A stretch of DNA of 64,000 bases from Candidatus Cloacimonadales bacterium (GTDB lineage Bacteria; Cloacimonadota; Cloacimonadia; Cloacimonadales; DAONDQ01). The stretch covers positions 160,001 through 224,000 of the forward strand of contig OY759316.1 in the NCBI GenBank assembly GCA_963662275.1, in the 5' to 3' direction. Each line of letters opens with the position of its first letter. Position 1 is the first letter of the stretch. Of the stretch, positions 12,984 to 32,554 are shown piece by piece. The position numbers and the translations under genes are program-made. Under the pieces are notes generated by a model. That model was not told the DNA's origin. It was given only the letters and a program-made list of their open reading frames with translations, and did no database searches.

Positions 12984-14575
12984 ACTCAACTAAAGCTCAA
13001 AAGAATGGCAAATCTGTAAATACGCAAGCCAATATGGACAAAACGATTAAATCAATCTGCGATATATTACGCCGCGATAAAGCCAAAGGTGCCCGTCTCT
13101 ATATACCTGAATTAACCTGGATGCTTTTCCTATGTTATCTGGACATCATTGAGATAGAACAGAAACAAAGAGCGCAGGCATTGGGGAAAGACTATTCTCC
13201 GATATTGGAATCACCGTACCGCTGGCAGGATTGGGCTGCGCCATTCGACCGCAAGAAAGACCCTGATGAACTGATTAGGAACCAGGAACAGGGATGGAAA
13301 CGCTGTGAACTCAGCAACAAACGGATGGGTTCCTTCCTCAAGTTTGTGAATGAAGAGCTGTTTCCCCATTTGATGAATCTCGAAAGCAATTTCAATGTGA
13401 CACATAAGCAGCGGATCATCTCTGAAATCTTTAAGACTAAACAAAATACGATCCTCGATTCCGAAAACAACTTGCAGGACGTTTTGGATAAAGTGCATGA
13501 TCTCGCCAATTCAAAGATCGACGACACACACTTGTTTCCTATTTCACAGGCATTTGAAGGCATACTGCCCAGCCTGGGTGAAAAGAAGAATGATGGTGGA
13601 CAGTTTTTCACTCCCCGCGAAGTGATTCGTGTGATCGTGGATATCGTCAAACCAAAACTCGGTTGTACCATCTACGATCCCTGCTGTGGAACAGGCGGTT
13701 TTTTAATTGAAGCCTACAAATATCTCCTGAAACAAAATCCTTCCTCTACCCAACTCGAACAACTCAAAACAGAAGCCTTCTGGGGTAGAGAAGATGCAGG
13801 GGAAGTAATACCTATCCTGTTAGCCAATCTTCTGCTGCATGATATCGATTTGCCCCATATCTGGCATGGTAATACCCTGACCGGTAAAACAACCTATGGT
13901 GAGTTATTTGCAGGTGCTCCCAATCAGTTTGATTATATTTTAACAAATCCGCCTTTTGGCAGCAAAGAGAGCCTTTCAGCCCAGTCCAGGTTTGCCTTTA
14001 AAAGCGGAAAAGCCCAGATTCTCTTTTTACAGCATATTATCGATAGCTTGGCTGATAACGGAGTCTGCGGTATGGTAATCGATGAAGGTGTTTTATTCCA
14101 TACAAAAACCAAAGCGTACGAACAGACCAAACGCAAACTACTGAACGAATGCAATCTGTTTTGTATTATAAGCTTGCCGGGCGGTGTATTTGTTAATGCC
14201 GGTGCCGGTGTTAAAACCAATCTGTTCTTCTTCCAGAAAGGCAAACCAACCAGGAAAGTCTGGTATTATGATATGACCCTCGACGATGAATTCAAAACAC
14301 GAAAAGTCAACAAAGGCACACCTTTTCTCTCTTCCCATTTCAATGATTGCCTCAGACGCTTAGCCCTACCGGAAGATCACCAGGAACGCATCAGTGAACG
14401 AAGCTGGTTCCTGACGATAGCAGAAATTGAAGCCAGAAACTATGACCTGAAAGCTGTGAATAATAATGCTCCTGACTTCTCTGATAAACGTACATCAAAG
14501 GAATTGATTGAAGTGATTCAGAAGGCTCAGGAAGAGATAGGGGAATTGCTTGAACAACTAACAAAGGAGAAGTAA
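12980..14575 (+). CDS. hsdM: Type I R-M N6-adenine methyltransferase
   Basis: GQFFTPR, YDPCCGTGGFL, TNPPFG motifs. Confidence 0.94.
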   Translation: MNSTKAQKNGKSVNTQANMDKTIKSICDILRRDKAKGARLYIPELTWMLFLCYLDIIEIEQKQRAQALGKDYSPILESPYRWQDWAAPFDRKKDPDELIRNQEQGWKRCELSNKRMGSFLKFVNEELFPHLMNLESNFNVTHKQRIISEIFKTKQNTILDSENNLQDVLDKVHDLANSKIDDTHLFPISQAFEGILPSLGEKKNDGGQFFTPREVIRVIVDIVKPKLGCTIYDPCCGTGGFLIEAYKYLLKQNPSSTQLEQLKTEAFWGREDAGEVIPILLANLLLHDIDLPHIWHGNTLTGKTTYGELFAGAPNQFDYILTNPPFGSKESLSAQSRFAFKSGKAQILFLQHIIDSLADNGVCGMVIDEGVLFHTKTKAYEQTKRKLLNECNLFCIISLPGGVFVNAGAGVKTNLFFFQKGKPTRKVWYYDMTLDDEFKTRKVNKGTPFLSSHFNDCLRRLALPEDHQERISERSWFLTIAEIEARNYDLKAVNNNAPDFSDKRTSKELIEVIQKAQEEIGELLEQLTKEK

Positions 14576-15456
14576 TGTTAATATCTGGAGGAGCTTCCAA
14601 AGACTTCACATATTATGTTGATCATAATCCAGGGGAAATCCCACATCAACGAGATTTTTGTGAATATATTAAACTACATAGGCCGAATAAAAGAATTTCA
14701 GGACCTGACATCAATCCCATGACTGTTAGGTTATTCTCCGCATATGCAGAAATGGAATTGATAGAATCGGAATACGCAAAGTTCAATTGCTTTTCAGAAG
14801 TTGAGTTTAAATATAAATCAGCTAATATTACCAAAGGAAGTCAACCTCTATCAACGGCTACGGGATCTGCAGTCGTTATTCCAGAAGTCCAAATTAACGA
14901 AGAAATAGAACTTTCTAATTGGAACTATATTAGCTCTTCTCCAAACATCTTTGTTTATCAAAATGACTCATGTAAATTGGTACTTTTCTACATACATAGG
15001 TCATTTTATAATTTTCTATATCATTGTTCATCCGTGTTAGATAGGGTAAAGCGTGAAACAGATACTTTCTATTCGATCATCTTATCCCAAAGAGCGATTA
15101 ATAGAAATATCAGGCATATTTATTTCTTGGATTTATTTGAAAACAAGTGGAAGTATTCCTTTCCAAATTCTGCAGGAGATTCACTAATAACCTCTCTTCA
15201 AACATTGCTCCCATCTAATTGTTATCTAAGAAATTTTAGAGAGTATAGAAATACAATTACCCATGATGGATTCATTAAGCTTCAAGAAGATATGGTGATT
15301 AATAAAATCTACATACAAGATGGTCCCAAAGTACCGACTTTCATTAATCAGATAGATTTGCTATCTTATTTGAATTCTACCTTTTCAGAAATTAAAAATT
15401 TCGTAGATAAATTCTACGAATTAATGCTTCAAGATGCAATCAACGGCAAAATCTAA
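14575..15456 (+). CDS. Putative HEPN-domain protein
   Basis: RxxxxH motif (YRNTITH) in a helical C-terminal region; TAATG overlap with the hsdM stop. Confidence 0.55.
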   Translation: MLISGGASKDFTYYVDHNPGEIPHQRDFCEYIKLHRPNKRISGPDINPMTVRLFSAYAEMELIESEYAKFNCFSEVEFKYKSANITKGSQPLSTATGSAVVIPEVQINEEIELSNWNYISSSPNIFVYQNDSCKLVLFYIHRSFYNFLYHCSSVLDRVKRETDTFYSIILSQRAINRNIRHIYFLDLFENKWKYSFPNSAGDSLITSLQTLLPSNCYLRNFREYRNTITHDGFIKLQEDMVINKIYIQDGPKVPTFINQIDLLSYLNSTFSEIKNFVDKFYELMLQDAINGKI

Positions 15457-15477
15457 ATCATCCAAAAAGGAGGACTA

Positions 15478-16281
15478 ATGGGAATAAGTATTGAAAAATA
15501 TAAACAAGATATTGAGGCTTTAATACAAAGAGGTAATTCGCTAGGGATTGCGATAAAAACTGAATGTGATCATAGTCAATTAGCAAATATCGGCAAGACA
15601 CCTGAAGAAATAGAGAAAATCAGAAAATCAATCCCTAATTTTCGAGTAGAATATCAAGCGTGGTATTCAGAAGCTAAAATTCTAATTAGAAATCTATTAC
15701 CTGATAGATTAGATGACTTTGTGAGATATTATGAAAAACCTAAATCAAGAAAGATAATTGATTTCGAAAGCTATAGAATTGAAGACTATCTACAGGGGGT
15801 TGTTGTCACAAATAGTTTCGACGGAGAAGTAATTGTCGGACATTCAGCTGCAATACCATTGTTCTATCAACAAATAGCCATAGTAAAAGCTCTAAGTAAA
15901 CGCTTTCAAAGTTCATTATTTGATATTAAACTTCATCTGCAAGCAGAAATGTTTGATGATGAACTAGATGCTGCTGAGTATTTGTTAATGAATAAATTTA
16001 CTAGAGCTGCCGGAGCAATCGCTGGTGTAATTCTTGAAAGGCATCTCAAACAGATATGTTTAAACTATCAAGTTACATTTGGGAATAAGAAAAACTTAGT
16101 TATTAGCGACTTGAATGATGCCTTAAAGAAAGCTAATATCCTTGAAACATCTGATTGGAGAAGAATTCAGCTTTTAGGCGATATTAGAAATAATTGTGAT
16201 CATGATAAGAAAACTGAGCCAAAAGAAGCAGAAGTTCAAGAATTGATTGATGGAGTAAAAAAGATCATTAAAACTTACTAG
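15478..16281 (+). CDS. Putative HEPN (DUF4145-like C-terminus) protein
   Basis: AAGAIAGVILERHLKQ...LNDALK...IRNNCDH (RxxxxH). Confidence 0.65.
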   Translation: MGISIEKYKQDIEALIQRGNSLGIAIKTECDHSQLANIGKTPEEIEKIRKSIPNFRVEYQAWYSEAKILIRNLLPDRLDDFVRYYEKPKSRKIIDFESYRIEDYLQGVVVTNSFDGEVIVGHSAAIPLFYQQIAIVKALSKRFQSSLFDIKLHLQAEMFDDELDAAEYLLMNKFTRAAGAIAGVILERHLKQICLNYQVTFGNKKNLVISDLNDALKKANILETSDWRRIQLLGDIRNNCDHDKKTEPKEAEVQELIDGVKKIIKTY

Positions 16282-16306
16282 TGTATTTTGAGTTCTGATA
16301 GAAAAG

Positions 16307-16331
16307 AGGGCGTGCTTCCGCACGCCCCTAC
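16307..16331 (-). repeat. REP-like hairpin, family B, between convergent genes
   Basis: Minus strand gtaggggcgtgcggaagcacgccct. Confidence 0.65.
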
Positions 16332-16336
16332 TTTGT

Positions 16337-16578
16337 TTACATAACATTCGTTAACATACCCGCTTCAGGAATAACCAATAGCAATCCGACTAGCATAGCA
16401 TCCACTACTGTTATCACAGGATATTCTTGTTTCAGAATATCATCTTTGGTTATGGTTGATAGATCAACTTCAGGTATCTGTCTCTTCAGAGCAAACATCA
16501 TTCTAAGATAGTTGCATAGCAATTAGCAGGTATTTTGTCTGCTAAATCAGTATAATTCTTCATGAGTGCTATGCTTAA
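16337..16578 (-). pseudogene. Frameshifted, 5'-truncated remnant of the 152-aa family, paralog 2
   Basis: ...ALMKNYTDLADKIPANCYA [1-nt shift near 16511] YLRMMFALKRQIPEVDLSTITKDDILKQEYP... matches the C-half of 27184-27642. Confidence 0.75.
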
Positions 16579-16634: not shown

Positions 16635-17336
16635 CTATAAGAACAGATTTTTTAATAAGAGTTTATCTGCTTGCAACGTTTGAGAAAGACCAGTAAAAAC
16701 TACTTTACCAATCTTCATTACATAAGATCTATCGCTAATTTTCAACACATCTGAAACTTTCTGTTCAACAATTAAAATGCTTACCTGTTGGTTTTGATTT
16801 ATTTCGACGATTTTGTTAAATACAGTGCTAACCTTATCGGGTGCTAATCCGAGAGATGGTTCATCTAGCAATAACAGCTTTGGAAGTGTAATAAGGGCTC
16901 TAGCCAAAGCCAACATTTGTTGTTCACCTCCAGAAAGGGTACCAGCATATTGCTTTAATCGATCTTTTACTTCAGGGAACGTAATTAACACATTTTCAAT
17001 ATTTTGTTTTAATAATTTATTAGAAAGATGAATACCACCTAGTTCAAGATTTTCCATGACTTTTAAATCGTTGAATACTCGATTTCCTTGGGGAACATAT
17101 GTTATTCCCATTTTAACATTCTGAGCTGGAGACAAACCATTTATAGTCGAAGAATCGTAAATTATATCACCATTCCATATAGGAATTATTCCGCATATTG
17201 TTTTCAATACAGTTGATTTGCCAGCACCATTGGGTCCGATGAGTGCTATAATTTCGCTTTCTTTAACTTCCATTGATATATTATAAAGAACTTGTTTCAA
17301 ACCATAGCCTGTTTCGAGATTTTTGATTTCCAACAT
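16635..17336 (-). CDS. livF: ABC transporter ATP-binding protein, LivF-like
   Basis: GPNGAGKST, LSGGEQQML, LLDEPSLGLAP, VEQ. Confidence 0.9.
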   Translation of the reverse strand: MLEIKNLETGYGLKQVLYNISMEVKESEIIALIGPNGAGKSTVLKTICGIIPIWNGDIIYDSSTINGLSPAQNVKMGITYVPQGNRVFNDLKVMENLELGGIHLSNKLLKQNIENVLITFPEVKDRLKQYAGTLSGGEQQMLALARALITLPKLLLLDEPSLGLAPDKVSTVFNKIVEINQNQQVSILIVEQKVSDVLKISDRSYVMKIGKVVFTGLSQTLQADKLLLKNLFL

Positions 17337-17344
17337 TATGAACC

Positions 17345-18100
17345 TCAGTGCAGATAAGTCTCAATAACCTTTGGATCATTTCTAACGAAATCTGGTTTCC
17401 CTTCACTAACGATCGTTCCACTATCCATGAATATTACACGGTCACAAATCTTCATAACAGCATCTAAATTGTGCTCTATTAGTATCACAGTCTTGCCTAG
17501 AGAAGGTAAACTCTTTATAATTGTGAGCATGGATTCGATAGTTTCAGGAGCTATTCCAGCAACGGGTTCATCAAGCAAAAGGACTTCAGATTTTGCAGCT
17601 AGACAACAAGCGATAGTTAGTAGTTTTTGCTGTCCATAAGATAATTTTTCAGCTGGATCATTTACCTTATTCCAGATACCCATTTCTTTCAATAACACCA
17701 TTGCTTCAATTTTGTTAGCAGTTTCTTGTTTTAAACAGTATTTCCAGTTAAAGAGAGTTCTATGCAGTTTTTCCCCCGGCTGGTTCTGAAATGCTAAGAG
17801 AACGTTATCCAAAACGCTTATTTGTTTAATAAGACGAAGATTCTGGAATGTCCTACTGATTCCAAGTCTTGTAATCCGAAAAGGGACAGCATTTGTAATA
17901 TCTTTGCTTTTAAAGATCACTTTCCCGTTATCGGGTATTACGAATCCACTTATTATATTAAAGAGAGTAGTTTTTCCTGCTCCATTGGGTCCTATTATTC
18001 CTAAAATCTCTCCTTTTTGTAAAGAGCAGGAGAAACCAGAAAGGGCACAAATTCCATTGTAACTTTTGTCCAGTAGCTGAATGTCAAGGATCCCGACCAT
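17345..18100 (-). CDS. livG: ABC transporter ATP-binding protein, LivG-like
   Basis: GPNGAGKTT, RTFQN, LSYGQQK, LDEPVAG, IEH, DPKVIETYL. Confidence 0.9.
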   Translation of the reverse strand: MVGILDIQLLDKSYNGICALSGFSCSLQKGEILGIIGPNGAGKTTLFNIISGFVIPDNGKVIFKSKDITNAVPFRITRLGISRTFQNLRLIKQISVLDNVLLAFQNQPGEKLHRTLFNWKYCLKQETANKIEAMVLLKEMGIWNKVNDPAEKLSYGQQKLLTIACCLAAKSEVLLLDEPVAGIAPETIESMLTIIKSLPSLGKTVILIEHNLDAVMKICDRVIFMDSGTIVSEGKPDFVRNDPKVIETYLH

Positions 18101-18101
18101 T

Positions 18102-18983
18102 TTAGAGTTTTCCTTTCAAAAATGAATATTCGCCGATGAGACCTCTAGGTCTCCATAACATAAATGCAACAAGCAAACCCCCGTAGATAATTTGTCTAAA
18201 ATTAGCAGCTATGGAACTTGGAAGTCCAATGAAACGCAAAATCTCAGGTAGAATCACAAGAAGAACTGAACCAATAACTGGTCCCCACATGCTACCTGAG
18301 CCTCCAATTATTACAATAGAAATCATGAAGATAGATTCCATTACAGTGAAACTGGTTGGATCTATAAAACTAATGTAATAGGCAAATAAAACTCCAGCAA
18401 TTGCAGCTAAGGCAGAGCCGATTGTGAAGACTAAAATTTTATATGAAGCTACATTTTTTCCTGTTGCTTGGGATAAAACTTCATCTTCACGGATCGCTTT
18501 CAACACACGCCCAAATGGTGAAATGATAATTCGTTTAATGAACAAGAAAGTAAAAGCACCAAAAAAAGAAACAAGTAGAAGAAAGCCAAATGTCGTGGAA
18601 AACTGTATCCCGAAAATTGATGGAATTGGAATACCCGGTAAGCCAATAGGACCACCTGTAAAGGAAATCAAATTGTTTAATATATTGAAAGAAATTACCT
18701 GCAATGCGAAAGTAGCAATTACAAAATAGTCATCTTTAATTCTGAGAGTCGGAATACCAATCAATGTACTAGAAACAATGCTAGTTACAATAGCAAAACT
18801 GAGCGTTAAAATGAAAGGACTATGGAGTTTTATTGATAACAGTGCAGCGGCATAGGCACCGATACCATAAAAAGTTGCATGAGCTATAGAAAGCAAACCT
18901 GTGTAGCCCATGATTAGGTTTAGTGATATTGTAAGAATAGAATAAATACCAATTAAAATAAAGATATGTATCAAATACTCCAT
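18102..18983 (-). CDS. livM: ABC transporter permease, LivM-like (start reassigned to MEYLIH)
   Basis: GYTGLLSIAHATFYGIGAY, SPFGRVLKAIREDE, RPRGLIG; ATG 10 nt after the livH stop, with a G-rich RBS. Confidence 0.88.
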   Translation of the reverse strand: MEYLIHIFILIGIYSILTISLNLIMGYTGLLSIAHATFYGIGAYAAALLSIKLHSPFILTLSFAIVTSIVSSTLIGIPTLRIKDDYFVIATFALQVISFNILNNLISFTGGPIGLPGIPIPSIFGIQFSTTFGFLLLVSFFGAFTFLFIKRIIISPFGRVLKAIREDEVLSQATGKNVASYKILVFTIGSALAAIAGVLFAYYISFIDPTSFTVMESIFMISIVIIGGSGSMWGPVIGSVLLVILPEILRFIGLPSSIAANFRQIIYGGLLVAFMLWRPRGLIGEYSFLKGKL

Positions 18984-18993
18984 TCTATATCCC

Positions 18994-19875
18994 CTACACC
19001 TCGGTTTTGAGAAATTGTTTTCGAAAAATACCTTTTGGACGTATAGCAAGAAAACTTAACAGCAAAATAAAAGCAGTTACTTCCCCCCACTGTGCTCCGA
19101 ATTGCCAACCAGCTATCTGCTGTAGAGTTGCTAAAATGAATGAGATTAAAGCAATTGAACAAGTTTTCCCATTTCCATTTATCACAACAACAACGATACC
19201 TAGCAATAGCATAGGTAGACCCATCGTCGGTGTCATTCCAACATCGTAAGCTTGAAGAATTCCAGTTGTACTCGCAATAAAAGAACCTAAGCAGAAGCAA
19301 ATTCCAGTAACTTTGTCTATTTCAATCCCACTTATCTTTGCTAACTCTTGATTGTTAGTTATTGCCCGCATAATTAAGCCAATTTTGGTTTTATCGATAA
19401 ATAAAGTCTTTGAAAGTAGAATGATTATCGCAAAACCGATTAGAATCAATTGGATGGGTGTAATCAAAGCTCCAAATAAATTGAGCGCTGGGGTAATTGA
19501 AGCGTTGCTAATTATTTTTGTATCGTCCCCGAATAGCAAAGATATCACATTCTGAATAACTGTATAGAGACCAAGGGAAGAAAGTAAAAGGACTAAAGAG
19601 GACGCATCTCGATGTCTCATTGGCCGATATACTGCCCAATCTAATAACCAACCTAATCCTGTTCCTGCTATTAACGCAAGAGGAAAAGCAGCATAGATTG
19701 AGAGGTGAATGACCTGAGAAAAAGCAAAAAAACTGTAGGCTCCAAATGTGATGATTACAGCATGAGTAAAATGAAAGAATCTAACTGCTGAGAATATTAT
19801 AGAGAAACTGCTACTTATAAGAAAGATTATGGAAGCAGAAATTAGAATATTTACAATGAATTGTTCCAATACCAA
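18994..19875 (-). CDS. livH: ABC transporter permease, LivH-like
   Basis: Multi-TM; TKIGLIMRA..N.ELA..SGI, RPKGIF. Confidence 0.85.
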   Translation of the reverse strand: MVLEQFIVNILISASIIFLISSSFSIIFSAVRFFHFTHAVIITFGAYSFFAFSQVIHLSIYAAFPLALIAGTGLGWLLDWAVYRPMRHRDASSLVLLLSSLGLYTVIQNVISLLFGDDTKIISNASITPALNLFGALITPIQLILIGFAIIILLSKTLFIDKTKIGLIMRAITNNQELAKISGIEIDKVTGICFCLGSFIASTTGILQAYDVGMTPTMGLPMLLLGIVVVVINGNGKTCSIALISFILATLQQIAGWQFGAQWGEVTAFILLLSFLAIRPKGIFRKQFLKTEV

Positions 19876-19878
19876 TCC

Positions 19879-21351
19879 TTAACGTCCGATATTTTCACAT
19901 TCGGCGCTTGTATCTTGTTGTACAAAATCTAACCACTCTACTTTATCTAAAATCAATCCTAATTGTAGAAGATAGGTTGCAAACTCCTGGTAACTCTCTA
20001 AATAATCAGGATATTTCTGAATCATCTTTCGAACTTCATATGAATAATTTACTGACCCATAGAAGGACTGATAAAGAAATTCTTTAATTTTGTTATACTC
20101 CGAAATTGAAATTCTTGAATTGTAAACAACAGGCATACTGACTGTATCAAAATCTTCCCAATTATTAGTTACCAGTAAGTTTTGATATGACACCCAGTCA
20201 TCAGTTCCAGGGAAAGGGGTAAAATAACTAATTTTGATTTCATTAGTATTTAATTTCTCAAGAAAAGTGGTCATAGTTTCTAAGAGATATTCAGGTGTTT
20301 CCCATGGAAATCCGATAATAAGGAAAACTTTTGTGATTATTCCCAGATCATTACACTTGCTGAATAGGCAATTCAGTTCGTCAAGACTGGCACTATCATT
20401 GTGTTTTAGTGTCTTACGCATTTTTATGTCAGCTGTTTCAACGCCAAAACCTATTTTACTACACCCCGCGGAAGCCATATCTTCAAGTAGAGTCATATCC
20501 AATGATGTTTTAGCCATGCAGAACCATCTTGCTTGTTCAGGAATTCCAGATTTCTGTAACTGTTCACATAGTTCATAAGTCCATTTTTTATCTTCTCCAA
20601 ATGCTTGATCTATGAATACTAACGAGTTGCAACCGGAATCAATAATAACTTTTTTAATCTCATTCACAGCAGAATAAGGTGTTCGAGTAATTAGTTGTGA
20701 ACCCCATACTAAATGAGAAGCACAAAATGAACAGTTGTTGTTACATCCTCGCGATAAGAGAAAAGACGCTGCCCCCGTCTGAATTGACGGTGATGGAAAC
20801 ATTAGTCCACGAAGTCTGCAGTTCTGTATATCCTTGACGCATCTCAATGGAGATGGTTGATTATCTAACAATTGGATTCTTTCCGCTCGAAGAACTTTTG
20901 ATTTTCTTGCAATTACAGATCTTGTTTCTTTGTTAGAAAGCTCATACATTATACTCAGAATAGCTTCCTCCCCTTCTCCAACAACAACATAATCGAACAA
21001 CTCAGTACCTGAATCTGCTGGTAGCGCGCTTACATGATAGCCTCCAACAATTAAAATAGACATTGGACTAATTCTACGAACTTGAGAAGCTAACGAGATA
21101 GCTTTGGGCCACTCAGATGTAGTTGCTGAAAAAAGAAGTATTCTTGGAGTATATTGTACTAAAAGCAATGCTTCCTCAGCTGTTACGGTTTTTAAAGAAA
21201 AATTCACCTTTTGTAAAACTGCTGCTATTATGTTATGAGTTAAAGTAGTTGGGTAATCATTAAGTAAATTTGGCATAATTGACTCAAGGTCAATCCAAAG
21301 CAAATCTTTCATTTCTAACTGCATTAAATTACTTGGTTTTATCTTGTCCAT
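19879..21351 (-). CDS. Cobalamin-binding radical SAM enzyme (class B methyltransferase-like)
   Basis: VGGYHVSALP...DYVVVGEGEE B12-binding domain; SRGCNNNCSFC; FGVET, IGFPWET, TPFPGT. Confidence 0.9.
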   Translation of the reverse strand: MDKIKPSNLMQLEMKDLLWIDLESIMPNLLNDYPTTLTHNIIAAVLQKVNFSLKTVTAEEALLLVQYTPRILLFSATTSEWPKAISLASQVRRISPMSILIVGGYHVSALPADSGTELFDYVVVGEGEEAILSIMYELSNKETRSVIARKSKVLRAERIQLLDNQPSPLRCVKDIQNCRLRGLMFPSPSIQTGAASFLLSRGCNNNCSFCASHLVWGSQLITRTPYSAVNEIKKVIIDSGCNSLVFIDQAFGEDKKWTYELCEQLQKSGIPEQARWFCMAKTSLDMTLLEDMASAGCSKIGFGVETADIKMRKTLKHNDSASLDELNCLFSKCNDLGIITKVFLIIGFPWETPEYLLETMTTFLEKLNTNEIKISYFTPFPGTDDWVSYQNLLVTNNWEDFDTVSMPVVYNSRISISEYNKIKEFLYQSFYGSVNYSYEVRKMIQKYPDYLESYQEFATYLLQLGLILDKVEWLDFVQQDTSAECENIGR

Positions 21352-21444
21352 AATAGTGCATATTTCTGAAAATTTAGTTCATGAATACACCATAGAGAAA
21401 TACAAGAGTTTGAATGGGAATGAACTTTTCTTTCTCTCACTTGA

Positions 21445-22608
21445 TCACTCTATTGCATCAAATAAAAGTTGACTATCTGAATCCTTAGTAATTGTCACTC
21501 CACAAAATTCTATTGGTTTAGAATCAGATTGATTTTCAATTCTCTCCAAAAGGCTGGCAAGTTCCTCAGCAGACATGGTTTTGGTCTTCATGAAGCAATT
21601 ATCGAACAGTTTCAAGTATTTATGTTCTGGTTCGAGAATCAGAGTACATAATTTTTCTTCTCCATTAACTCTTACATCTGTAGAAGCTTCTGTGGGATCA
21701 TTCCATTTAATAACCGCTTTCTGGTCAAACATCTGATAATCAACGTTAGCTAAGCCACAAGAACAATATGCTTTGCACAGTGTTTTTTCATATGCAAATC
21801 TAGTAGATATACTATAATCACTCATTTTCATCGAAAACCTTAGAAAACATTTTAACGCCTGACGGTTATTAATACTGAAAAAATCGTTAAGTTTATTTTC
21901 TGCTATTATCACGAAACGCTTTTTCACTTCTGTAACATTAGCACTTAAAAATGCCTTGGCGTGAGGTGGAAAATCGTTAAAATCAAGTTGATCAGTAAGT
22001 GCACGTTTACGTTTTTCCGGAGATTCTTCAAATACATTCTCAAACCACTCTTTCGGAGTATATGGGCATGTCATATATATGGACTTATGTGTGAATGGTA
22101 ACAACTCATTAATTATCTCTGAATACTCTGTAGCACTGGTTACTATTTGAATTTTTGTGGGAGATAGAAAATCTTTGCTTAATTTATGCGAAATAAATAA
22201 AGGAACAATCCACTTAGTTTTTGTCGGGATATTTTCTGATAAACGAAGGAGACTCTCAAAATTACCTTCATCTGTATGGAATGCTACGTATGGAGATAGA
22301 CGATCAAGAGAGTTCATAATATGTGAAAAATATTTCTCTTTAAACTGTATGTCTATATCATTAATTAATTCCTTTGTTTGTTTTCTATCAATTATTCTTA
22401 TTAATCCTAGAATATTATCTGAAATAAGTGCACAGAGACTTATGATGATAAAGTTCCAAGTTCCTATTCCTAAGCATTTAGGAACTGTCTGATGAGCAAT
22501 AATAAGTCCAATGATTATTCCAACACCATATTTAGATATCCGATATAGAGTATTCCAAGTGTGAGTACTAGATTGGTTGTTTTTCTGTTTTCGCTTTTTA
22601 TTACTCAT
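21445..22608 (-). CDS. Hypothetical protein with two N-terminal TM segments and a soluble domain
   Basis: 387-aa ORF starting 1 nt after the rSAM stop with a GGAGG RBS; hydrophobic stretches at about aa 27-70. Confidence 0.75.
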   Translation of the reverse strand: MSNKKRKQKNNQSSTHTWNTLYRISKYGVGIIIGLIIAHQTVPKCLGIGTWNFIIISLCALISDNILGLIRIIDRKQTKELINDIDIQFKEKYFSHIMNSLDRLSPYVAFHTDEGNFESLLRLSENIPTKTKWIVPLFISHKLSKDFLSPTKIQIVTSATEYSEIINELLPFTHKSIYMTCPYTPKEWFENVFEESPEKRKRALTDQLDFNDFPPHAKAFLSANVTEVKKRFVIIAENKLNDFFSINNRQALKCFLRFSMKMSDYSISTRFAYEKTLCKAYCSCGLANVDYQMFDQKAVIKWNDPTEASTDVRVNGEEKLCTLILEPEHKYLKLFDNCFMKTKTMSAEELASLLERIENQSDSKPIEFCGVTITKDSDSQLLFDAIE

Positions 22609-22609
22609 A

Positions 22610-23752
22610 TCACCTCCATTCTTCTATATATTGAGTAACATCAAAATCACTCAGATCAACAAAGATGCATGATGTCTTTTGTCCATTTATGAATCTTTTA
22701 TGCATTGGTCCTCCATCGCAGTATGCCCATTCTGAACACTGAACACAATCACCTGTTTTTCGCCAAGATGCATCTCGGAAAATCTGATACCGGTTTTCCC
22801 AAACTTCATGAATATTGTCTGTGCGAAGATCTCCCTGTATAAAATCTCTTGATATGTTACTACATGATGCAAGTTTACCATCGAATAGAATGCCCAGGTT
22901 ATTCAATCCTGCAATACAGTGAAAAATAAAAGGTCGCACACGTCCTTCAAGTTCTGTACCAAGCCATCCACCACATCCAAGTTCTACCATTGTTGAAGAT
23001 GGATTCGAATAAGTTGAACAAGAATTATCATATTCCTTCTTAAGAAAATCAATCACTCTCAGTAATTGGTTTGGTTTAAGGAGGTGATCAGAATTCTCTT
23101 GCACACGTCCCATAAGATCAATAAACATTACACGAAAAACTCGAGGTTTTATCTCATCCTTGACAAATTTAAAAAACGATTCAAGTTCATTGATATTGCC
23201 TGAATGAGCAACGAACGAAACAGTTACAACATAGCCCGCTGCGACTGTAAGTTGTGCAGCATTAACTGCTTTTACCCATGTCCCTGGTATTCCCCTGAGG
23301 GTGTCATGAGATGATTCGAATCCATCAATACTGATGCCTAATCCAGTAACTCCGAGGTTTTTTAATTCTTTGAGGATAAATGGGTTTTCCGAAATAAAAA
23401 CTCCATTCGTCTGGATATCTATATTTCTATAATAAGGCCAGCGATTGATAGTTTGCAGGATTGTAAGTAGGTCGTTTCGAACAAAAGGCTCTCCGCCAGT
23501 GATATTTATATGCCGAAAATGGTTCATATCGAAATCTTGTGCGATTTCGTTAAAAGCTTCAATAATTTCATATTTCGTTAGTTCAGAAGCAATATCAACT
23601 TCTTCAGAAGGAGAACCACAATGCGAGCACATAAGGTTGCATCTTCGAGTAGCTTCCCAACTAATGATTTGGAGAGGATGCTCCTTCTTAAGGGTTTCTA
23701 TTCGAGATTTCCAATTTTCAAAGAGTGGTTTTAAAACCTCATAATCTGTCAT
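22610..23752 (-). CDS. Radical SAM/SPASM peptide maturase, TIGR04133/splicease-like
   Basis: HPL....WE.T.RCNL.C.HCGS; ITGGEP; QTNG; SPASM cysteines FHCIAG, ASCSNI, CVQCSEWAYCDGG, TSC. Confidence 0.85.
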   Translation of the reverse strand: MTDYEVLKPLFENWKSRIETLKKEHPLQIISWEATRRCNLMCSHCGSPSEEVDIASELTKYEIIEAFNEIAQDFDMNHFRHINITGGEPFVRNDLLTILQTINRWPYYRNIDIQTNGVFISENPFILKELKNLGVTGLGISIDGFESSHDTLRGIPGTWVKAVNAAQLTVAAGYVVTVSFVAHSGNINELESFFKFVKDEIKPRVFRVMFIDLMGRVQENSDHLLKPNQLLRVIDFLKKEYDNSCSTYSNPSSTMVELGCGGWLGTELEGRVRPFIFHCIAGLNNLGILFDGKLASCSNISRDFIQGDLRTDNIHEVWENRYQIFRDASWRKTGDCVQCSEWAYCDGGPMHKRFINGQKTSCIFVDLSDFDVTQYIEEWR

Positions 23753-23928
23753 TATGCAAAAACTTGATCGAAATAATCGTTATTCTCATCATCAGGATGG
23801 CTTCCATACATGTTGTTGACGTATTCTACTGGATTCGACCACTTGAGCATTCTTCTTTTAAATTCGAGTACAGAATCTTTATTTTTTACGGCGGGTGCAT
23901 TGTTGTCCATCTGTGTAGTGTTTGACAT
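23752..23928 (-). CDS. Putative RiPP precursor, 58 aa: MSNTTQMDNNAPAVKNKDSVLEFKRRMLKWSNPVEYVNNMYGSHPDDENNDYFDQVFA (not in ORF track)
   Basis: GGAG RBS at 23940-23937; fills the livK-rSAM gap; stop overlaps the rSAM start (TAATG). Confidence 0.78.
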   Translation of the reverse strand: MSNTTQMDNNAPAVKNKDSVLEFKRRMLKWSNPVEYVNNMYGSHPDDENNDYFDQVFA

Positions 23929-23940
23929 AAGATAATCTCC

Positions 23941-25062
23941 TTATTTTAAGTTAACAGGTTGACCATTAATAATAGTCTTTTTTGCAAATGATTCTGAAAA
24001 AAGATCTCCGTTTGGACGAAAAGCGATTTCGCCAGAAACGCCCTGAAAAGTAACTCCTAAAAGTGCAGAGCGAATCTTTTCAGTGTTGATTGAATTTGCA
24101 GTTTTCACAGCTTTGAAAATCGCCATAGAGGCATCGTAAGCATAGGCTCCAAGTACATCTGGTTCTTCACCATATTTGGTTTTGTATTTCTTAGCGAATT
24201 CGATGAAGCTTGCAGTTTTACTATCAGATGGCGCAGTATAAAAAACACCTTCCGCAGCTTTTCCAGCTATTGTGATAAACTCGGGGGAACCCCAGTTATC
24301 ACCCCCGAAAAGGGGTAAGTTAAGTCCAAGTTCTTTCATCTGTCTAACAAAGACTCCTCCTTCTTTAGGATAAGTTGGAGAGACAATGGCATCGATGTTT
24401 TTCATTCTTTTAAGTTTAGTTATAATTGTACGAAAATCTGTTGAATTTTCTTCCACTCCTTCAGCATGTACTACCTGACCTCCTAATGCTTCAAACTTGC
24501 TTTGAAATCCTTCAGAAAGTGGTTTACCCCAAGCGTTATTTGAAAATACAATCGCAACTCTCTTTTTCCCAATTCCGTATACCCATTTTGAGAGTACTTC
24601 AGCTTGTTGATCATCAGCGGGACAAGTTCGGAAGAAATACTCCCCACCTTGAGTAGATAACTCAGTAGATGATGCTATTGGAGAAATTAATATAACCTTG
24701 AATCTGCTTGCTAAAGGTGCTATAGCTAGACATACGCCACTACCTGCAGAGCCAAATACAACCGGAATTTTATCAATAGAAGCAAATTTTGTCATAATAC
24801 TGACAGCTTCTTTCTTATCATTACGGTCATCCTGAAAATCAACAACAACCTGTTTCCCAAGAAGACCTCCTTTTGCATTCTGGTCTTCCACAGCCATTTC
24901 AATTCCTCGTTTTGCTTTTTGACCATATGATGCTACTTCGCCAGTTAAAGGGAAGGTTGCACCGAAAGTGATCGTGTTTGTTGTTTTATGCCAGGGATGA
25001 AAAATAATTAGTCCAGCAACAATGACTAGCACTAAAATGATAGGCCAAATTGAATTTCTCAT
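23941..25062 (-). CDS. livK: ABC transporter substrate-binding protein, LivJ/LivK-like
   Basis: N-terminal anchor; FPLTGEVASYG...IEMAVE..NAKGGLLGK; YFFRT.P.D; DFRTII; AYAYDA. Confidence 0.88.
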   Translation of the reverse strand: MRNSIWPIILVLVIVAGLIIFHPWHKTTNTITFGATFPLTGEVASYGQKAKRGIEMAVEDQNAKGGLLGKQVVVDFQDDRNDKKEAVSIMTKFASIDKIPVVFGSAGSGVCLAIAPLASRFKVILISPIASSTELSTQGGEYFFRTCPADDQQAEVLSKWVYGIGKKRVAIVFSNNAWGKPLSEGFQSKFEALGGQVVHAEGVEENSTDFRTIITKLKRMKNIDAIVSPTYPKEGGVFVRQMKELGLNLPLFGGDNWGSPEFITIAGKAAEGVFYTAPSDSKTASFIEFAKKYKTKYGEEPDVLGAYAYDASMAIFKAVKTANSINTEKIRSALLGVTFQGVSGEIAFRPNGDLFSESFAKKTIINGQPVNLK

Positions 25063-25239: not shown

Positions 25240-27137
25240 CTGGAGGTGTCCCGTAACTAGCATTAATCTATTTGCTTATTTTGTAAAATATATGATTGTT
25301 TTTAGATGTACACTAAATTACTCAATAGTTTCCGAAAAGCGATGCAAAGACAAGGAAAATGGAGTAATATTTACCTAATTCATGTTTGAATTCTGGTAGG
25401 AAGAGTCTTCATTAGGCTTTTCCTTCAGTATTTTGTAAGTGTAGAAACATTTTCCCTATATTATGTCCTAAAAAGAGGAGGTATAACTGTTCCTTGCATT
25501 TTCTCAATGAACGGACAGTAAATCTCTCAAACTTCCTGTTCCACTTCATGAAAGCAAATACAGCCTCCGGTTCGATGCCTCTTTGCTTTCTCAGCTTGTC
25601 GCCTTTTTCAGAAAGCAGATTATTGACGGTCTGACGTTTTAGGGGAGCTATATGAGGATCGTAGGTCAGCAATTTATGAGTTTTATCCTTGTAGGGAATA
25701 CACTTTTTATTGTGAGGACATTCTATGCAGTCATTACATATATAGGTTTTCACGATTCGTTTCGGACCGTTCTTCTCTGTCTCTTCTTCCTTGATTTTGA
25801 CCAGTCTCCGATTAAATTGACAGCCCCACTCATCATGCTCCTCATCATAGCTAAAGCCTGTCAGAAGAGAGTCCCGATAATCTCTCTTATAATCCTGGGT
25901 CTTGAGATAGCTTGTTATCTCTTTTTCAGCAGCATAATTCAAATTCAGCGCAGTGCCATAGGCAGCATCTCCAACAACGTCGGTAGGATATTGTCCCAAT
26001 TCATCATGCATTTGCTCCATGAGATTGGGAAATTCAACGGTTTCTTTAGGGATATTGAATAAGTGAATGCCTGTGACAAATTGCTCTGAAGTTCCGATAC
26101 TGGCAACATAACCCGGTGCCAGCTGTCCATTTTTCAATCGCATAAATGTGGCATCATTATCAGTCTTGGATGTGCTGCTGCGTCCTTCTCCAATTATCTC
26201 AAGCTGTTGCTCATATTTCTCCAGCTTAGTTATATCATTGCTCTTTGATTTGGAGATTTCGCGCAAAAGAGATTTGATTTTCTTGATAGCCCGAGTATCT
26301 GACGGATGATTTTTCTGTAGTCGGGACATTGCTTCTTTCAGCTTGTTTTCTGCTGAGACCAGTCTATCTCTGATCTGTTCAGATGCGACTGTAGCAGTTT
26401 TCTCTGATTCAACCGCATGCAATTGCTCACCAAGCTCAAGAAGATCAGCGGTTCCATATTGCTGTTGCTCTTCCTGATTATATTCCTCGATCTTTTTAAA
26501 CAATCCCTCAACTCGTGTCTTGACCAGTTCCTGATAACGAAGCGCATTGCTTTTCCAGATGTAGGAATTCTTGCCGGCATTTGCGTGAATCGTCGTCCCG
26601 TCAACAAAACAGGTGTCGAGATCAAGATATCCTAATGATGATGCTTTCAGTACTACCTGATAAAATACATCAATAAGAATATCAGAACACTTAGTCCAGG
26701 CAAAGGTGTTGATCGTTCTGAAATCAGGTTCCTGTTCTCCTGCCAGCCAGATAAAATTGATGTTCTCCCGAACAGCCTTAGCTATCTTCCGACAGGTATA
26801 AATACCATTGATATAGGCGTATACAATGATCTTCAACATCATCTTGGGATGATAAGCAGGTGTACCTTCATCAGAGTATCTTGAGTATAGCTCAGTTAAG
26901 TCCAGTTGCTCAATGATATCGTTAACATAACGAACCATATGTTTGGGGGGTATTTTTTCGCTTATATTAAGCCCGAAAAGAGTACCCTGATCCGGGTTGT
27001 GTTCTCTGAAATTCATAGTGTCTCTCTATACTTAGTTTTTAAAGGCAATAATACACCATAGAACAATATGTCAAGATATATAACTAATTATTTAATAGTT
27101 GCTATTTTTCTATCATTTAGTTTCGGGACATCTCCAG
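25240..27137 (-). mobile_element. IS1182-family insertion sequence
   Basis: Terminal IRs ctggaggtgtcccgtaacta / tagtttcgggacatctccag (18/20 match) enclosing the transposase; exact ends uncertain by a few nt. Confidence 0.85.
25412..27016 (-). CDS. IS1182-family transposase
   Basis: G.PAYHPKMMLK, PDFRTI, VDGTTIHANA, SKTD.DATFMR, GDAAY, R..EPE.VF..K. Confidence 0.93.
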   Translation of the reverse strand: MNFREHNPDQGTLFGLNISEKIPPKHMVRYVNDIIEQLDLTELYSRYSDEGTPAYHPKMMLKIIVYAYINGIYTCRKIAKAVRENINFIWLAGEQEPDFRTINTFAWTKCSDILIDVFYQVVLKASSLGYLDLDTCFVDGTTIHANAGKNSYIWKSNALRYQELVKTRVEGLFKKIEEYNQEEQQQYGTADLLELGEQLHAVESEKTATVASEQIRDRLVSAENKLKEAMSRLQKNHPSDTRAIKKIKSLLREISKSKSNDITKLEKYEQQLEIIGEGRSSTSKTDNDATFMRLKNGQLAPGYVASIGTSEQFVTGIHLFNIPKETVEFPNLMEQMHDELGQYPTDVVGDAAYGTALNLNYAAEKEITSYLKTQDYKRDYRDSLLTGFSYDEEHDEWGCQFNRRLVKIKEEETEKNGPKRIVKTYICNDCIECPHNKKCIPYKDKTHKLLTYDPHIAPLKRQTVNNLLSEKGDKLRKQRGIEPEAVFAFMKWNRKFERFTVRSLRKCKEQLYLLFLGHNIGKMFLHLQNTEGKA

Positions 27138-28348: not shown

Positions 28349-29626
28349 ATGATTACCACATCAAAATCTAACCCAAAGAGGTTTTTTGTCAACTCAGAAA
28401 TGATGCTTGTTGGCATTGATATCAGCAAGCACAAACACAGTGTGTATTTTTGTGATTTTACAGGTGAACGGAAGCGTAAGCCATTTTTTATTACAAACAA
28501 TCATGATGGTTTTCAGTATCTGCTAAAAGAAGCAGAACAGCAAAAGCGTTTGTGGAATCTGAACGAGATTGTATTTGGAATGGAACCAACAGGTTCATAT
28601 GTAAAGCCACTCCAGTACTTCTTGGAAGAACGCTGCTATCAAATCCAAAGCATCAACCCATTACACACTAAAAGATGGAAGGATATTGAAGATAATCATC
28701 CATCCAAGAATGATTTGAAAGACAGTATTATCATTACCTCTCTGTTAAGAATGGGCAAGAGCATCCATCATCGGAGACCTGAAGGTGTTTTCGCGGAGTT
28801 GAACAACTATGCAGCTTATTATCACCAGTTAATCACAGATATTCGCAGGCAGAGGAACTATCTGGAAGCCTCTTATGCCTGTTACTTTCCTGAATTGAGT
28901 AACTTTTTCAAATTTAACAGTACGGGAGTAATGTATATCATGGAGTGTTTTCCTCTTCCTCAGGATATCGTAAATGCAGGATATGAGAATTTTCTGAAGA
29001 TTATGAAAACAAAAAGCAAAGGGTGCATAGCTACAGAGAAGCTTCACAGTTTATATCAGGTATCTCTAACAAGTATTGGCATGAGTCAGGGAGCGGATAG
29101 TGCGAGAGTGGTCATAAATGCGATCTATGAGGATATCAGCTATAAACAATACCATCTCAAACAAATCAAAACAGCAATCATGACATGTGTAGATAAAATC
29201 AGTTATGGATCGTTATTGGTGACAATACCTGGTTTGAGTAAAGTATCAGTGGGGTTAATTCTGGCGGAGACTGGAGATATCAATCAATATGGTCGATATC
29301 AGGATTTAGTCAAACTTGCCGGATTGAGTTTAAAACACAATCAATCAGGAGAATACCATGGGCAATATCATATCTCTAAGGTAGGAAGAGTAAGGTTGCG
29401 AAGGATCTTGTATATGCTTACTCTGGAAATGATTATAAACAATCAATTAATCAATCAGATATATAATTATCAAGTAAAAAAGCGAGGTAATAACAAGGTC
29501 AAAACTATCGTTTCTTTGAGCAGTAAATTACTGGGAATCATGTACTCAATGGTTAAATATGAAAGGTCGTTTGATCCTGAACAGCGAAAGCTATATGCAG
29601 GTTATTTAACTGAAAATAATCAGTGA
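28349..29626 (+). CDS. IS110-family transposase/recombinase
   Basis: RuvC-like GIDISK, GMEPTG, KND.KD; C-terminal TIPG...ILAETGD...F/Y..AGL....QSG...ISK.G..LR. Confidence 0.93.
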   Translation: MITTSKSNPKRFFVNSEMMLVGIDISKHKHSVYFCDFTGERKRKPFFITNNHDGFQYLLKEAEQQKRLWNLNEIVFGMEPTGSYVKPLQYFLEERCYQIQSINPLHTKRWKDIEDNHPSKNDLKDSIIITSLLRMGKSIHHRRPEGVFAELNNYAAYYHQLITDIRRQRNYLEASYACYFPELSNFFKFNSTGVMYIMECFPLPQDIVNAGYENFLKIMKTKSKGCIATEKLHSLYQVSLTSIGMSQGADSARVVINAIYEDISYKQYHLKQIKTAIMTCVDKISYGSLLVTIPGLSKVSVGLILAETGDINQYGRYQDLVKLAGLSLKHNQSGEYHGQYHISKVGRVRLRRILYMLTLEMIINNQLINQIYNYQVKKRGNNKVKTIVSLSSKLLGIMYSMVKYERSFDPEQRKLYAGYLTENNQ

Positions 29627-32532: not shown

Positions 32533-32554
32533 TCAAAATTAGCCAAACGAACGG

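Follow-up and report, generated by a model that had tools for sequence, protein, structure and literature searches.

The locus described here lies in a stretch of 64,000 nucleotides from a Candidatus Cloacimonadales bacterium (assembly GCA_963662275.1, contig OY759316.1, positions 160,001 to 224,000), which is referred to as the window and whose positions are counted from its first letter. ORF calling on the window revealed nine tightly packed, co-oriented open reading frames (ORFs) on the minus strand between 16635 and 25062. In gene order these encode a substrate-binding protein (SBP), a protein of 58 amino acids (aa), a radical S-adenosylmethionine (SAM) enzyme with a SPASM domain, a 387-aa protein, a B12-binding radical SAM enzyme, and livH-, livM-, livG- and livF-like subunits of an ATP-binding cassette (ABC) importer:

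23941..25062, minus strand: Liv-type (HAAT family) SBP, 373 aa; Pfam Peripla_BP_6, 198.9 bits
23752..23928, minus strand: precursor-like small protein, 58 aa; pairing with the SPASM gene and a conserved motif
22610..23752, minus strand: radical SAM/SPASM enzyme, 380 aa; Pfam Radical_SAM, 62 bits, and SPASM, 29 bits
21445..22608, minus strand: membrane-tethered protein with a phospholipase D (PLD)-like fold, 387 aa; AlphaFold2 (AF2) model and structure search
19879..21351, minus strand: radical SAM enzyme with a B12-binding domain (class B-like), 490 aa; Pfam B12-binding and Radical_SAM
18994..19875, minus strand: LivH/UrtB-like ABC permease, 293 aa; Pfam BPD_transp_2, 93.5 bits
18102..18983, minus strand (the ORF opens with TTG at 19049): LivM-like ABC permease, 315/293 aa; BPD_transp_2, 152.7 bits
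17345..18100, minus strand: LivG-like ABC ATPase, 251 aa; Pfam ABC_tran and BCA_ABC_TP_C
16635..17336, minus strand: LivF/UrtE-like ABC ATPase, 233 aa; Pfam ABC_tran, 110.8 bits
16307..16328, minus strand: terminator-like GC-rich hairpin, candidate operon end; consensus scan, pattern match only

The intergenic distances are 12, -1, 1, 93, 3, 10, 1 and 8 nt in gene order, the value of 10 assuming that the LivM-like permease starts with the ATG at 18983. This start appears likely, rather than the TTG at 19049; tblastn matches to the ORF in related loci begin at query residues 13-23. The hairpin is situated about 300 nt downstream of livF and comprises nine pairs, seven of them GC, followed by a T-rich tail. 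Pfam assigns to the cluster one Peripla_BP_6 domain, Radical_SAM plus SPASM, B12-binding plus Radical_SAM, two BPD_transp_2 and two ABC_tran domains, while the 58-aa and the 387-aa ORFs have neither a Pfam nor an NCBIfam match. An earlier reading of the window from its letters alone (the sequence-only reading) had described nine packed, co-oriented genes with these gaps, and the ORF coordinates and Pfam domains bear this out. The decayed gene that it placed beyond livF was not recovered, the region 16174-16522 holding short ORFs without Pfam match.

A scan of species-representative genomes yielded seven close loci (58-71% identity) and a metagenome scan 80 further loci; 86 loci were analysed, with L092 left out for a SPASM match below 50% identity. 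These include near-duplicate metagenome contigs (e.g., L042-L044, L049-L054, L056/L057). The seven close loci keep the order SBP, peptide, SPASM enzyme, variable gene, B12-radical SAM enzyme, livH, livM, livG and livF as far as the contigs extend; those of L004 and L006 stop shortly past the SPASM gene, and L001 carries methyltransferase genes instead of the B12 enzyme. The same interleaved order is present in metagenome-assembled genomes (MAGs) labelled Planctomycetota, Zixibacteria, Deltaproteobacteria and Bacteroidetes and in dozens of metagenome contigs. A peptide homologue lies immediately upstream of the SPASM gene in 75 of the 79 loci with at least 250 nt of upstream sequence. Among the four exceptions, the peptide gene is located downstream in L081 and before a tandem second SPASM paralogue in L069 and L083, and none was found in L068. 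An SBP gene is immediately upstream in 40/54 loci (at least 1.5 kb upstream available), a B12 enzyme of the window type is encoded in 14/31 loci (at least 4 kb downstream available) and all four LivHMGF genes in 12/20 loci (at least 7.5 kb downstream available). The importer association also occurs in other gene orders, with livG/F ahead of the SBP gene (L047, L058) or with SBP and ATPase genes after an insertion sequence (IS) (L066). Moreover, the identities of the SBP and of the SPASM enzyme to their window counterparts co-vary (Spearman 0.68, from 40 non-independent loci). Because the other genes vary among the 86 loci, the peptide and the SPASM enzyme form the invariant core unit, and the importer is a frequent, co-inherited partner. 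This agrees with the sequence-only reading in that both the short ORF/SPASM pair and the transporter linkage are real and recurrent; homologues lacking peptide as well as transporter, which it had named as counter-evidence, were looked for among the related loci, and the outcome did not refute it. The arrangement is more widespread than a reading of the window alone could show.

An AAGGAG box lies 8 nt ahead of the ATG of the 58-aa ORF, whose stop codon overlaps the start of the SPASM gene (TAATG). It is not a chance ORF, because it is conserved as a protein beside the SPASM gene in related loci. From these, 86 peptides were recovered, 74 of them unique, and the motif statistics refer to the unique set. 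The first approximately 20 residues are variable and are followed by [FY]K[KR]R[MI]LxW, NPVE[YF]VNNMYG[C/S]HP, an acidic stretch and [ED]YFxx[VI][FY]. In the window peptide the core motif is NPVEYVNNMYGSHP at residues 32-45, with a second invariant Tyr-Phe at 52-53. Tyr-Gly, His and the second Tyr are kept in 74/74 peptides, Pro-Val-Glu and Asn-Asn each in 73/73, and E35, Y41 and H44 are invariant. The residue preceding Tyr is Met in 71 peptides, Leu in two and Ile in one. The Cys position holds Cys in 59, Ser in 10 (as in the window peptide), Ala in three and Thr in two. The approximately 40 strongly conserved residues point to a small protein retained in the cell rather than to a typical variable secreted peptide of the ribosomally synthesised and post-translationally modified (RiPP) kind. 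Kyte-Doolittle analysis showed no hydrophobic segment in the peptide, the SPASM enzyme or the B12 enzyme, and all three are predicted to be cytoplasmic. The peptide gene is single-copy in the genome. A search for similar proteins returned only 10, the window's own included, probably since small ORFs are rarely called, and a search for longer proteins, which is weak evidence, found no fused or longer forms. Two modifications were considered for the Cys position and rejected: a sactipeptide-type thioether, against which its variability argues (Ser, Ala or Thr in 15/74), and an anSME-like formylglycine at (C/S)-x-P, the residue being Ala or Thr in 5/74. In one archaeal-looking contig (L074), the peptide ORF contains NPVE.VNN[MI]YGCHP twice, like a two-core precursor; it lies directly upstream of the SPASM match at 10001-11065, with the second motif copy at about 9863-9967.

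The SPASM enzyme carries the CX3CX2C motif at C38/C42/C45 and, in the alignment, seven further invariant Cys in its C-terminal half, which would be enough for two auxiliary clusters. As the radical SAM motif begins at residue 38, there is no room for an N-terminal RiPP recognition element (RRE). The enzyme has 266 relatives at E≤1e-30, and the best 120 of the 266 are 58-72% identical and all bear generic names only. Its best-scoring curated family, matched over the full length, is TIGR04133 of Bacteroidota; the models of the mycofactocin maturase MftC (84.3 bits) and of PqqE (72.5 bits) stay far under their cut-offs. True TIGR04133 members, including those of loci L008 and L009, are 33-35% identical to the window enzyme, and the L009 enzyme, used as a control, scores 589.2 bits with this model. 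In both loci the TIGR04133 gene adjoins TIGR04134 lipoprotein genes, and no transporter linkage is present at either. All five TIGR04134-type lipoproteins examined (three were scored against TIGR04134) contain EYG[C/M]P 2-11 residues past the lipobox Cys, near the mature N-terminus. The partner in the window is a 58-aa cytoplasmic peptide and not a lipoprotein of approximately 150 aa, and the partners of the two enzyme types, otherwise unrelated, have only the Tyr-Gly-Cys site in common. That the partners of two sister enzyme families share this site is the strongest comparative argument for Tyr-Gly as the target site. TIGR04134 was found in none of 151 genomes of the window's phylum, with Bacteroides thetaiotaomicron as a positive control, nor in the host's own genome, where the 58-aa neighbour lacks both an NCBIfam match and a hydrophobic segment. 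In the literature searched there was no paper on TIGR04133, TIGR04134 was mentioned in one paper in passing, and the Tyr-Gly site of this system is seemingly undiscussed. At L009:4367-6052, four tandem lipoprotein genes precede one TIGR04133 gene; two of them scored as TIGR04134, and each encodes a lipobox followed by [PNV]EYGCP within 2-11 residues.

Structure prediction of the enzyme-peptide complex lends weak support to an interaction. The median score was 0.35 (runs 0.88, 0.02 and 0.35) compared with 0.01 for the best control; at least 30% of contacts are common to the runs, and the pLDDT of the partner is no lower than 41. The mark used was reached by 116/157 solved complexes and 2/215 mismatched pairs, and at scores of 0.60 or lower by only 18/157 solved complexes and by both of the passing mismatches.

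According to the published work used here, spliceases are SPASM radical SAM enzymes that excise a tyramine equivalent at X-Tyr-Gly, leaving an alpha-keto-beta-amino amide (PMC11414181, PMC11626197, PMC10533398, PMC9811515, PMC10849128, PMC11002830). MYG and LYG are experimentally proven splice sites, and the binary spliceases dispense with an RRE-like Y protein and use a leader helix instead (PMC11414181, PMC11626197, PMC10533398, PMC9811515). The PlpX subclass is named IPR026482 (PMC11002830), later-described types are phylogenetically broader (PMC11414181), and the native products and roles of spliceotides are described as unknown (PMC9811515). The sequence-only reading had called the window enzyme splicease-like, which is reasonable, given Tyr-Gly in every unique peptide and MYG as a published site (PMC11414181, PMC11626197). 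The window system shares with the spliceotide systems (PlpX/PcpX with a Y protein; binary RhaX/RcsX/RasX with A precursors) the SPASM enzyme beside a precursor with an X-Tyr-Gly site, for which MYG is a proven variant, and with the binary types the lack of an RRE; a helix-prone conserved stretch lies just upstream of the site. It differs in that the PlpX-type model TIGR04103 failed, that the precursor is not NHLP- or Nif11-like, that approximately 40 residues are conserved across phyla, that no exporter or peptidase is encoded and that an SBP-dependent importer operon, which also includes a PLD-fold membrane protein, surrounds the genes. In the literature searched, which lacks the main splicease survey where such a case may be listed, no peptide/SPASM pair in a Liv-type operon was described.

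The importer comprises a complete HAAT part set in one operon: a Peripla_BP_6 SBP, two BPD_transp_2 permeases and two ABC ATPases. The SBP has an N-terminal hydrophobic anchor or signal at residues 1-27, and its nearest PDB relatives by sequence are Leu/Ile/Val- and general amino-acid-binding proteins (E 1.5e-44). For the binding pocket, 39 unique cluster SBPs were aligned with E. coli LivJ/LivK. LivJ positions Y18, S79, Y202 and D121 are kept in 39/39, T102 is Ser in 37/39 and E226 is Asp in 38 and Glu in one; we take S79, T102, Y202 and E226 to be the contacts for the alpha-amino and alpha-carboxylate groups of the bound ligand. The pocket lining differs from LivJ and is fixed in the family, with L77 replaced by Ala (38/39), C78 by Gly (37/39), Y150 by Trp (38/39) and G227 by Asn (36/39). 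As the head-group positions are kept and the family-specific pocket is fixed, the ligand is probably an alpha-amino acid, or a compound with the corresponding head group, and all SBPs of the family probably bind the same one. The system thus resembles the LivJ/K-LivHMGF importers in its five parts with the expected domains and in the head-group positions. Unlike in these, no subunit reaches an equivalog cut-off (UrtB and LivH models on the LivH-like permease under the NCBIfam cut-offs; LivG 212 bits vs. 362 for the LivG-like ATPase; UrtE 214 bits and LivF 198.7 bits, both under cut-off, for the LivF-like ATPase), and four non-transport genes lie between the SBP and the permease genes.

The 387-aa protein has 84 representatives at E≤1e-3 among 1.8 billion proteins, and an ESM Atlas search returned unnamed clusters only (best score 0.92). 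Its AF2 model (pLDDT 83.7, pTM 0.70) shows long N-terminal helices with hydrophobic segments, followed by an alpha/beta domain. By the Kyte-Doolittle scale one segment is above the threshold (44-73), and a weaker one before it, recognised by eye, is below; a relative in another locus (L003_384) has two clear hydrophobic segments. The sequence-only reading had described a protein with two transmembrane segments: the hydrophobic N-terminus is present, but only one segment exceeds the threshold and most of the protein is a PLD-fold domain, predicted to be cytoplasmic. The alpha/beta domain matches the PLD/Nuc fold with VIA-align Z-scores of 9.7-7.6 over 124-182 residues in the top 20 rows, headed by 7e0m (Z 9.7, rmsd 4.2, 164 aligned residues), NucT (9.6) and Nuc/TrmBL2/FAM83 (9.4); we take all 20, among them the non-catalytic TrmB sugar-binding and FAM83 domains, to belong to the PLD superfamily. 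Foldseek likewise returned PLD/Nuc/TrmB-C/FAM83 matches (E 2.8e-5 to 1.5e-3). The catalytic motif HxK(x)4D is absent: H216 is kept in 40/43 sequences and position 218 is Arg or Lys in 26/43, and at position 223, which is Ser, Ala or Leu, Asp is never among the five commonest residues of the 43 sequences. By sequence, the protein resembles the non-catalytic members of the superfamily, i.e., the TrmB sugar-binding domain and FAM83. Given that both the N-terminus and the segment following the second helix are basic, the positive-inside rule predicts a cytoplasmic PLD-fold domain. Other loci hold genes of different size in this position, which proved to be remote homologues (hhalign 99.6%, E 2e-24; 93.9%; 93.9%), and a superfamily member follows the SPASM gene in 26/31 SBP-linked and 0/6 SBP-less loci, a count that describes these loci and is not a test, as the HMMs (hidden Markov models) were built from them. 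Its restriction to SBP-linked loci suggests that the PLD-fold protein is part of the transporter branch rather than of the modification machinery. The 904-aa and 815-aa proteins at this position in L001 and L068, which contain methyltransferase domains, were tested as relatives and rejected (hhalign 0.1%).

The B12-radical SAM enzyme matches Pfam PF02310 (B12-binding, 38.9 bits; cut-off 32.1) and PF04055 (Radical_SAM, 44.3 bits). No NCBIfam equivalog is reached; the best models are those of the small-molecule enzymes HpnJ (105 bits vs. a cut-off of 577.6), BchE and PhpK, and the only PDB sequence match is AprD4 (E 8.5e-15). With the class B RiPP methyltransferases (TIGR03975, PoyC-type) it has in common the B12-binding and radical SAM domains and the position beside a peptide/radical SAM pair; in some loci class I methyltransferases substitute for it, which is consistent with a methylating role. 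Class I methyltransferase genes are interleaved between livH and livM in L001, L002 and L031, and the importer association persists with such insertions. It differs from them in that TIGR03975 scores 50.5 bits vs. 281.85 and that the best match, HpnJ, is not a peptide methylase. The doubly modified peptide suggested by the sequence-only reading may hold for the window, but not as a property of the family, since the B12 enzyme is an accessory component.

The loci without an SBP form a transporter-less class. In 14 SBP-less loci a tandem Lrp/AsnC-like protein of approximately 320 aa is encoded divergently upstream, and in L081 a TrmB-type regulator takes its place. The tandem proteins match Lrp/LysM/AsnC regulators best in NCBIfam and the PDB. 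They were considered as siroheme decarboxylases and this was rejected: the 28 PDB matches at E≤1e-3 consist of Lrp/AsnC-type regulators and three weak ubiquitin-fusion chains, with no AhbA/B or NirDL among them. Some SBP-less loci (L064, L073, L056) have class-B-like radical SAM genes of their own. The L074 contig looks archaeal, carrying GatD/GatE-type genes, a hallmark of Archaea. The transporter-less class may represent a larger pathway, and it is suggestive that both classes tie the pair to a type of amino-acid-binding protein. L056:5422-9608 and L064:353-5660 each contain two separate tandem Lrp/AsnC-like genes on the flanks of the peptide/SPASM pair, together with extra radical SAM genes that encode a TIGR03975-like protein of 641 aa and a SPASM-like protein of 382 aa.

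We propose that in this locus a RiPP-like module for protein maturation has become part of an amino-acid-type ABC importer operon, an interpretation for which we consider the chances to be about even. The cytoplasmic 58-aa peptide would be the substrate of the adjoining SPASM enzyme, which probably recognises the helix-like [FY]K[KR]R[MI]LxW and modifies NPVE[YF]VNNMYG[C/S]HP at the invariant Tyr41-Gly42. Provided that the peptide is the substrate, the analogy with spliceases makes excision of a tyramine equivalent from Met-Tyr-Gly the leading, though tentative, assignment, which we hold with somewhat less than even confidence. It would leave a backbone alpha-keto-beta-amino amide, the mass signature of splicing being a loss of C8H9NO (135.06 Da), and the main alternative is a Tyr-centred cross-link. 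In the window, the B12 enzyme would then modify this peptide once more, C-methylation being the likeliest reaction; elsewhere class I methyltransferases would take over, or the step would be absent. The modified peptide probably stays in the cell, because the cluster contains neither exporter nor protease and because approximately 40 residues are under strong constraint; it would act with the PLD-fold protein and the LivK/HMGF-like alpha-amino-acid importer as a regulator or as a carbonyl-bearing cofactor protein.

Several observations weigh against this interpretation. The conserved part of the peptide is unusually long for a RiPP core, and the second invariant Tyr (Y52) and the invariant Glu (E35) permit other target sites. 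With TIGR04133 the SPASM enzyme scores 229.1 bits (residues 19-362), below the cut-off of 425, and with TIGR04103, which we take to be equivalent to IPR026482, 96.7 bits at a cut-off of 725, no better than with the NirJ1, NirJ, AhbD and AhbC models (approximately 88-103 bits). One of the three complex-prediction runs scored 0.02. It is not obvious what an SBP-dependent importer would do in a peptide pathway, 14/54 loci have the pair without a transporter and 17/31 have it without the B12 enzyme, and the locus counts overstate independence owing to the near-duplicate contigs. Finally, gene content, order and conservation are observed directly, and the chemistry and the physiological role are derived from them.

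Most characterised SPASM peptide maturases make cross-links, and the window enzyme might do so without tyramine excision, joining Glu35 and Tyr41 as PqqE does, or Tyr and His, or Tyr and Cys. The invariance of E35, Y41 and H44 would suit this chemistry, and models of the PqqE, SkfB and MftC type also match the enzyme (PqqE in the PDB, E 1.4e-8). It is nevertheless rather unlikely in our view: the 2-11 residues between lipobox Cys and EYG in the sister lipoproteins leave no counterpart of the NPVE Glu, which is five residues upstream, the Cys is replaced in 15/74 peptides, and the invariant Gly after Tyr fits the XYG rule of the spliceases. The peptide could also give rise to a free cofactor or small molecule, as in the pyrroloquinoline quinone (PQQ; PqqA/PqqE) and mycofactocin (MftA/MftC) systems, with the modified residues excised and the free product being active. 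The window system is like these in its very short, extremely conserved peptide with an invariant Tyr beside a SPASM enzyme, and conservation of the motif across phyla and in an archaeal-looking locus is a pattern expected of a cofactor precursor and not of an antibiotic. In contrast to these systems, the Tyr occupies an internal position with an invariant Gly after it, and no PqqD- or MftB-type RRE, no PqqB/C/F- or MftD/E/F-like genes and no peptidase recur in the loci; since the conservation also covers far more residues than an excised two-residue product needs, we regard this origin as quite unlikely.

A further explanation is that the radical SAM enzymes act on an imported amino acid or small molecule, the 58-aa protein being an accessory subunit or scaffold. 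The amino-acid-type head-group site of the SBP, the interleaving of transporter and enzyme genes, the Lrp/AsnC-like proteins (an amino-acid-binding family) of the SBP-less loci and the HpnJ, BchE and PhpK matches of the B12 enzyme all speak for it. Yet the only invariant unit is the peptide-SPASM pair, the Tyr-Gly site is common to the sister-family partners and the motif is duplicated in one peptide, as is typical of substrates, which makes this explanation distinctly improbable. The NirJ1, NirJ, AhbD and AhbC matches (88-103 bits) might instead indicate a tetrapyrrole system, in which a NirJ/AhbC/AhbD-like enzyme works with a BchE-like B12 enzyme (142.7 bits in L064), the small protein, rich in His, Met, Tyr and Cys, carries a haem-type ligand and the tandem AsnC-type proteins of 14 loci, one with a NirdL-like_HTH match of 32 bits, are relatives of siroheme decarboxylases. 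These scores, however, fall far short of the 500-650 bits set as equivalog cut-offs, the L009 enzyme, a true TIGR04133 member, cross-matches the same models equally, the tandem proteins best match Lrp/LysM/AsnC regulators and a Liv-type SBP with an amino-acid head-group site is unfit for tetrapyrrole uptake, so that the scheme as a whole, the decarboxylase relationship included, is highly improbable. Lastly, an unrelated peptide/radical SAM cassette might have been inserted into the Liv operon of this genome by chance, as the region is mobile (IS elements, type I restriction-modification) and the pair can exist without transporter; this is barely credible given that the interleaved order recurs across MAGs of several phyla and dozens of metagenome contigs and that the SBPs constitute a single orthologous group sharing a family-specific pocket.

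To return to the maturation module in the importer operon, its core is a known kind of system, a peptide with a SPASM radical SAM enzyme, most likely Tyr-Gly-directed like the spliceases. New are the conserved embedding in an importer operon, the PLD-fold partner, a peptide conserved in the manner of a cofactor precursor and, as an alternative to the importer, the association with Lrp/AsnC-like proteins. Pairs of this kind are normally read as makers of secreted natural products. Here the peptide is conserved nearly residue for residue across distant phyla, comes without export or cleavage machinery and is wired to an uptake system, and where the transporter is missing, a protein of the amino-acid-sensing type (Lrp/AsnC-like) stands in its place. 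The peptide-modifying system may thus serve the cell's own amino-acid handling rather than provide a secreted antibiotic. If the link is functional, a post-translationally rewritten small protein would take part in amino-acid uptake or sensing in anaerobes, and the chemistry may be a new branch of Tyr-Gly-directed radical SAM reactions common with the widespread TIGR04133/TIGR04134 system of gut Bacteroidota. As a speculative extension that is itself improbable, the reaction at Tyr-Gly might install an electrophilic alpha-ketoamide in the universally conserved 14-residue motif, creating a protein-derived cofactor or covalent amino-acid receptor whose intracellular partners would be the importer and the PLD-fold protein in bacteria and the tandem Lrp/AsnC-type proteins in archaea-like lineages. 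If true, this would be the first physiological, housekeeping-type role for spliceotide chemistry, as opposed to that of a secreted protease inhibitor.

The cassette as a whole is probably a horizontal acquisition. The SPASM gene was found in 0/40 relatives of the host (one of the same genus, 39 of the same order; 36 at least 90% complete), and its nearest named homologues, with 68-71% identity, come from MAGs labelled Sedimentisphaerales and Zixibacteriota, copies in Bacteroidetes MAGs being 58-60% identical. The cluster has a GC content of 35.9%, compared with 39.0% elsewhere in the window, and ranks eighth among 112 sliding windows of 8.4 kb; two transposase genes lie within 4.5 kb upstream of the operon:

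25412..27016, minus strand: transposase, 534 aa, adjoining the cluster upstream; Pfam DDE_Tnp_1_6, DUF772 and DDE_Tnp_1
28349-29626, plus strand: IS110-family transposase

The second IS is about 3.3 kb further out than the first, past a 152-aa ORF. Horizontal acquisition is the simplest reading because the relatives lack the SPASM gene, IS elements adjoin the cluster and its GC content is lower; this supports what the sequence-only reading had proposed, and the AT-richness it noted is real, though mild. Its flanking IS1182 is confirmed as regards transposase domains next to the cluster, but the family name depends on the combination of DDE_Tnp_1_6 and DUF772, which we assume to be typical of IS5/IS1182-group elements. 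That no protease or RRE is visible also agrees with the related loci, where no leader peptidase, exporter or RRE is among the recurrent gene families of the 86 loci.

On the other side of the cluster, a complete type I restriction-modification system is encoded on the plus strand at 9391-14575 (hsdR-like, 787 aa; hsdS-like, 410 aa; hsdM-like, 531 aa), followed by two co-oriented genes without Pfam match (14575-16281, plus strand). Together with the transposases, this system marks a variable or mobile region. Further upstream, 30346-37822 encodes two large type IX secretion cargo proteins, one of 728 aa with Reg_prop repeats and the other a C25 (gingipain-family) peptidase of 1755 aa with a Por_Secre_tail domain. 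The presence of type IX secretion sorting domains in nearby genes assigns the host to the FCB group. Among the related loci, a gene for a nucleotidyltransferase-domain protein (203 aa) and a 136-aa gene lie between livH and livM in a Bacteroidetes MAG (L007:15517-16531), which may be a small toxin-antitoxin-like or mobile insert. An accessory gene of 327-405 aa without Pfam match (49% mean column identity) recurs in six loci, two of them near-duplicates, and sits before livH or between livH and livM (locus coordinates):

L017:12316-13533, accessory gene
L032:5085-6068, accessory gene
L035:14225-15406, accessory gene
L039:15219-16385, accessory gene
L042:5935-7068, accessory gene
L043:6433-7566, accessory gene

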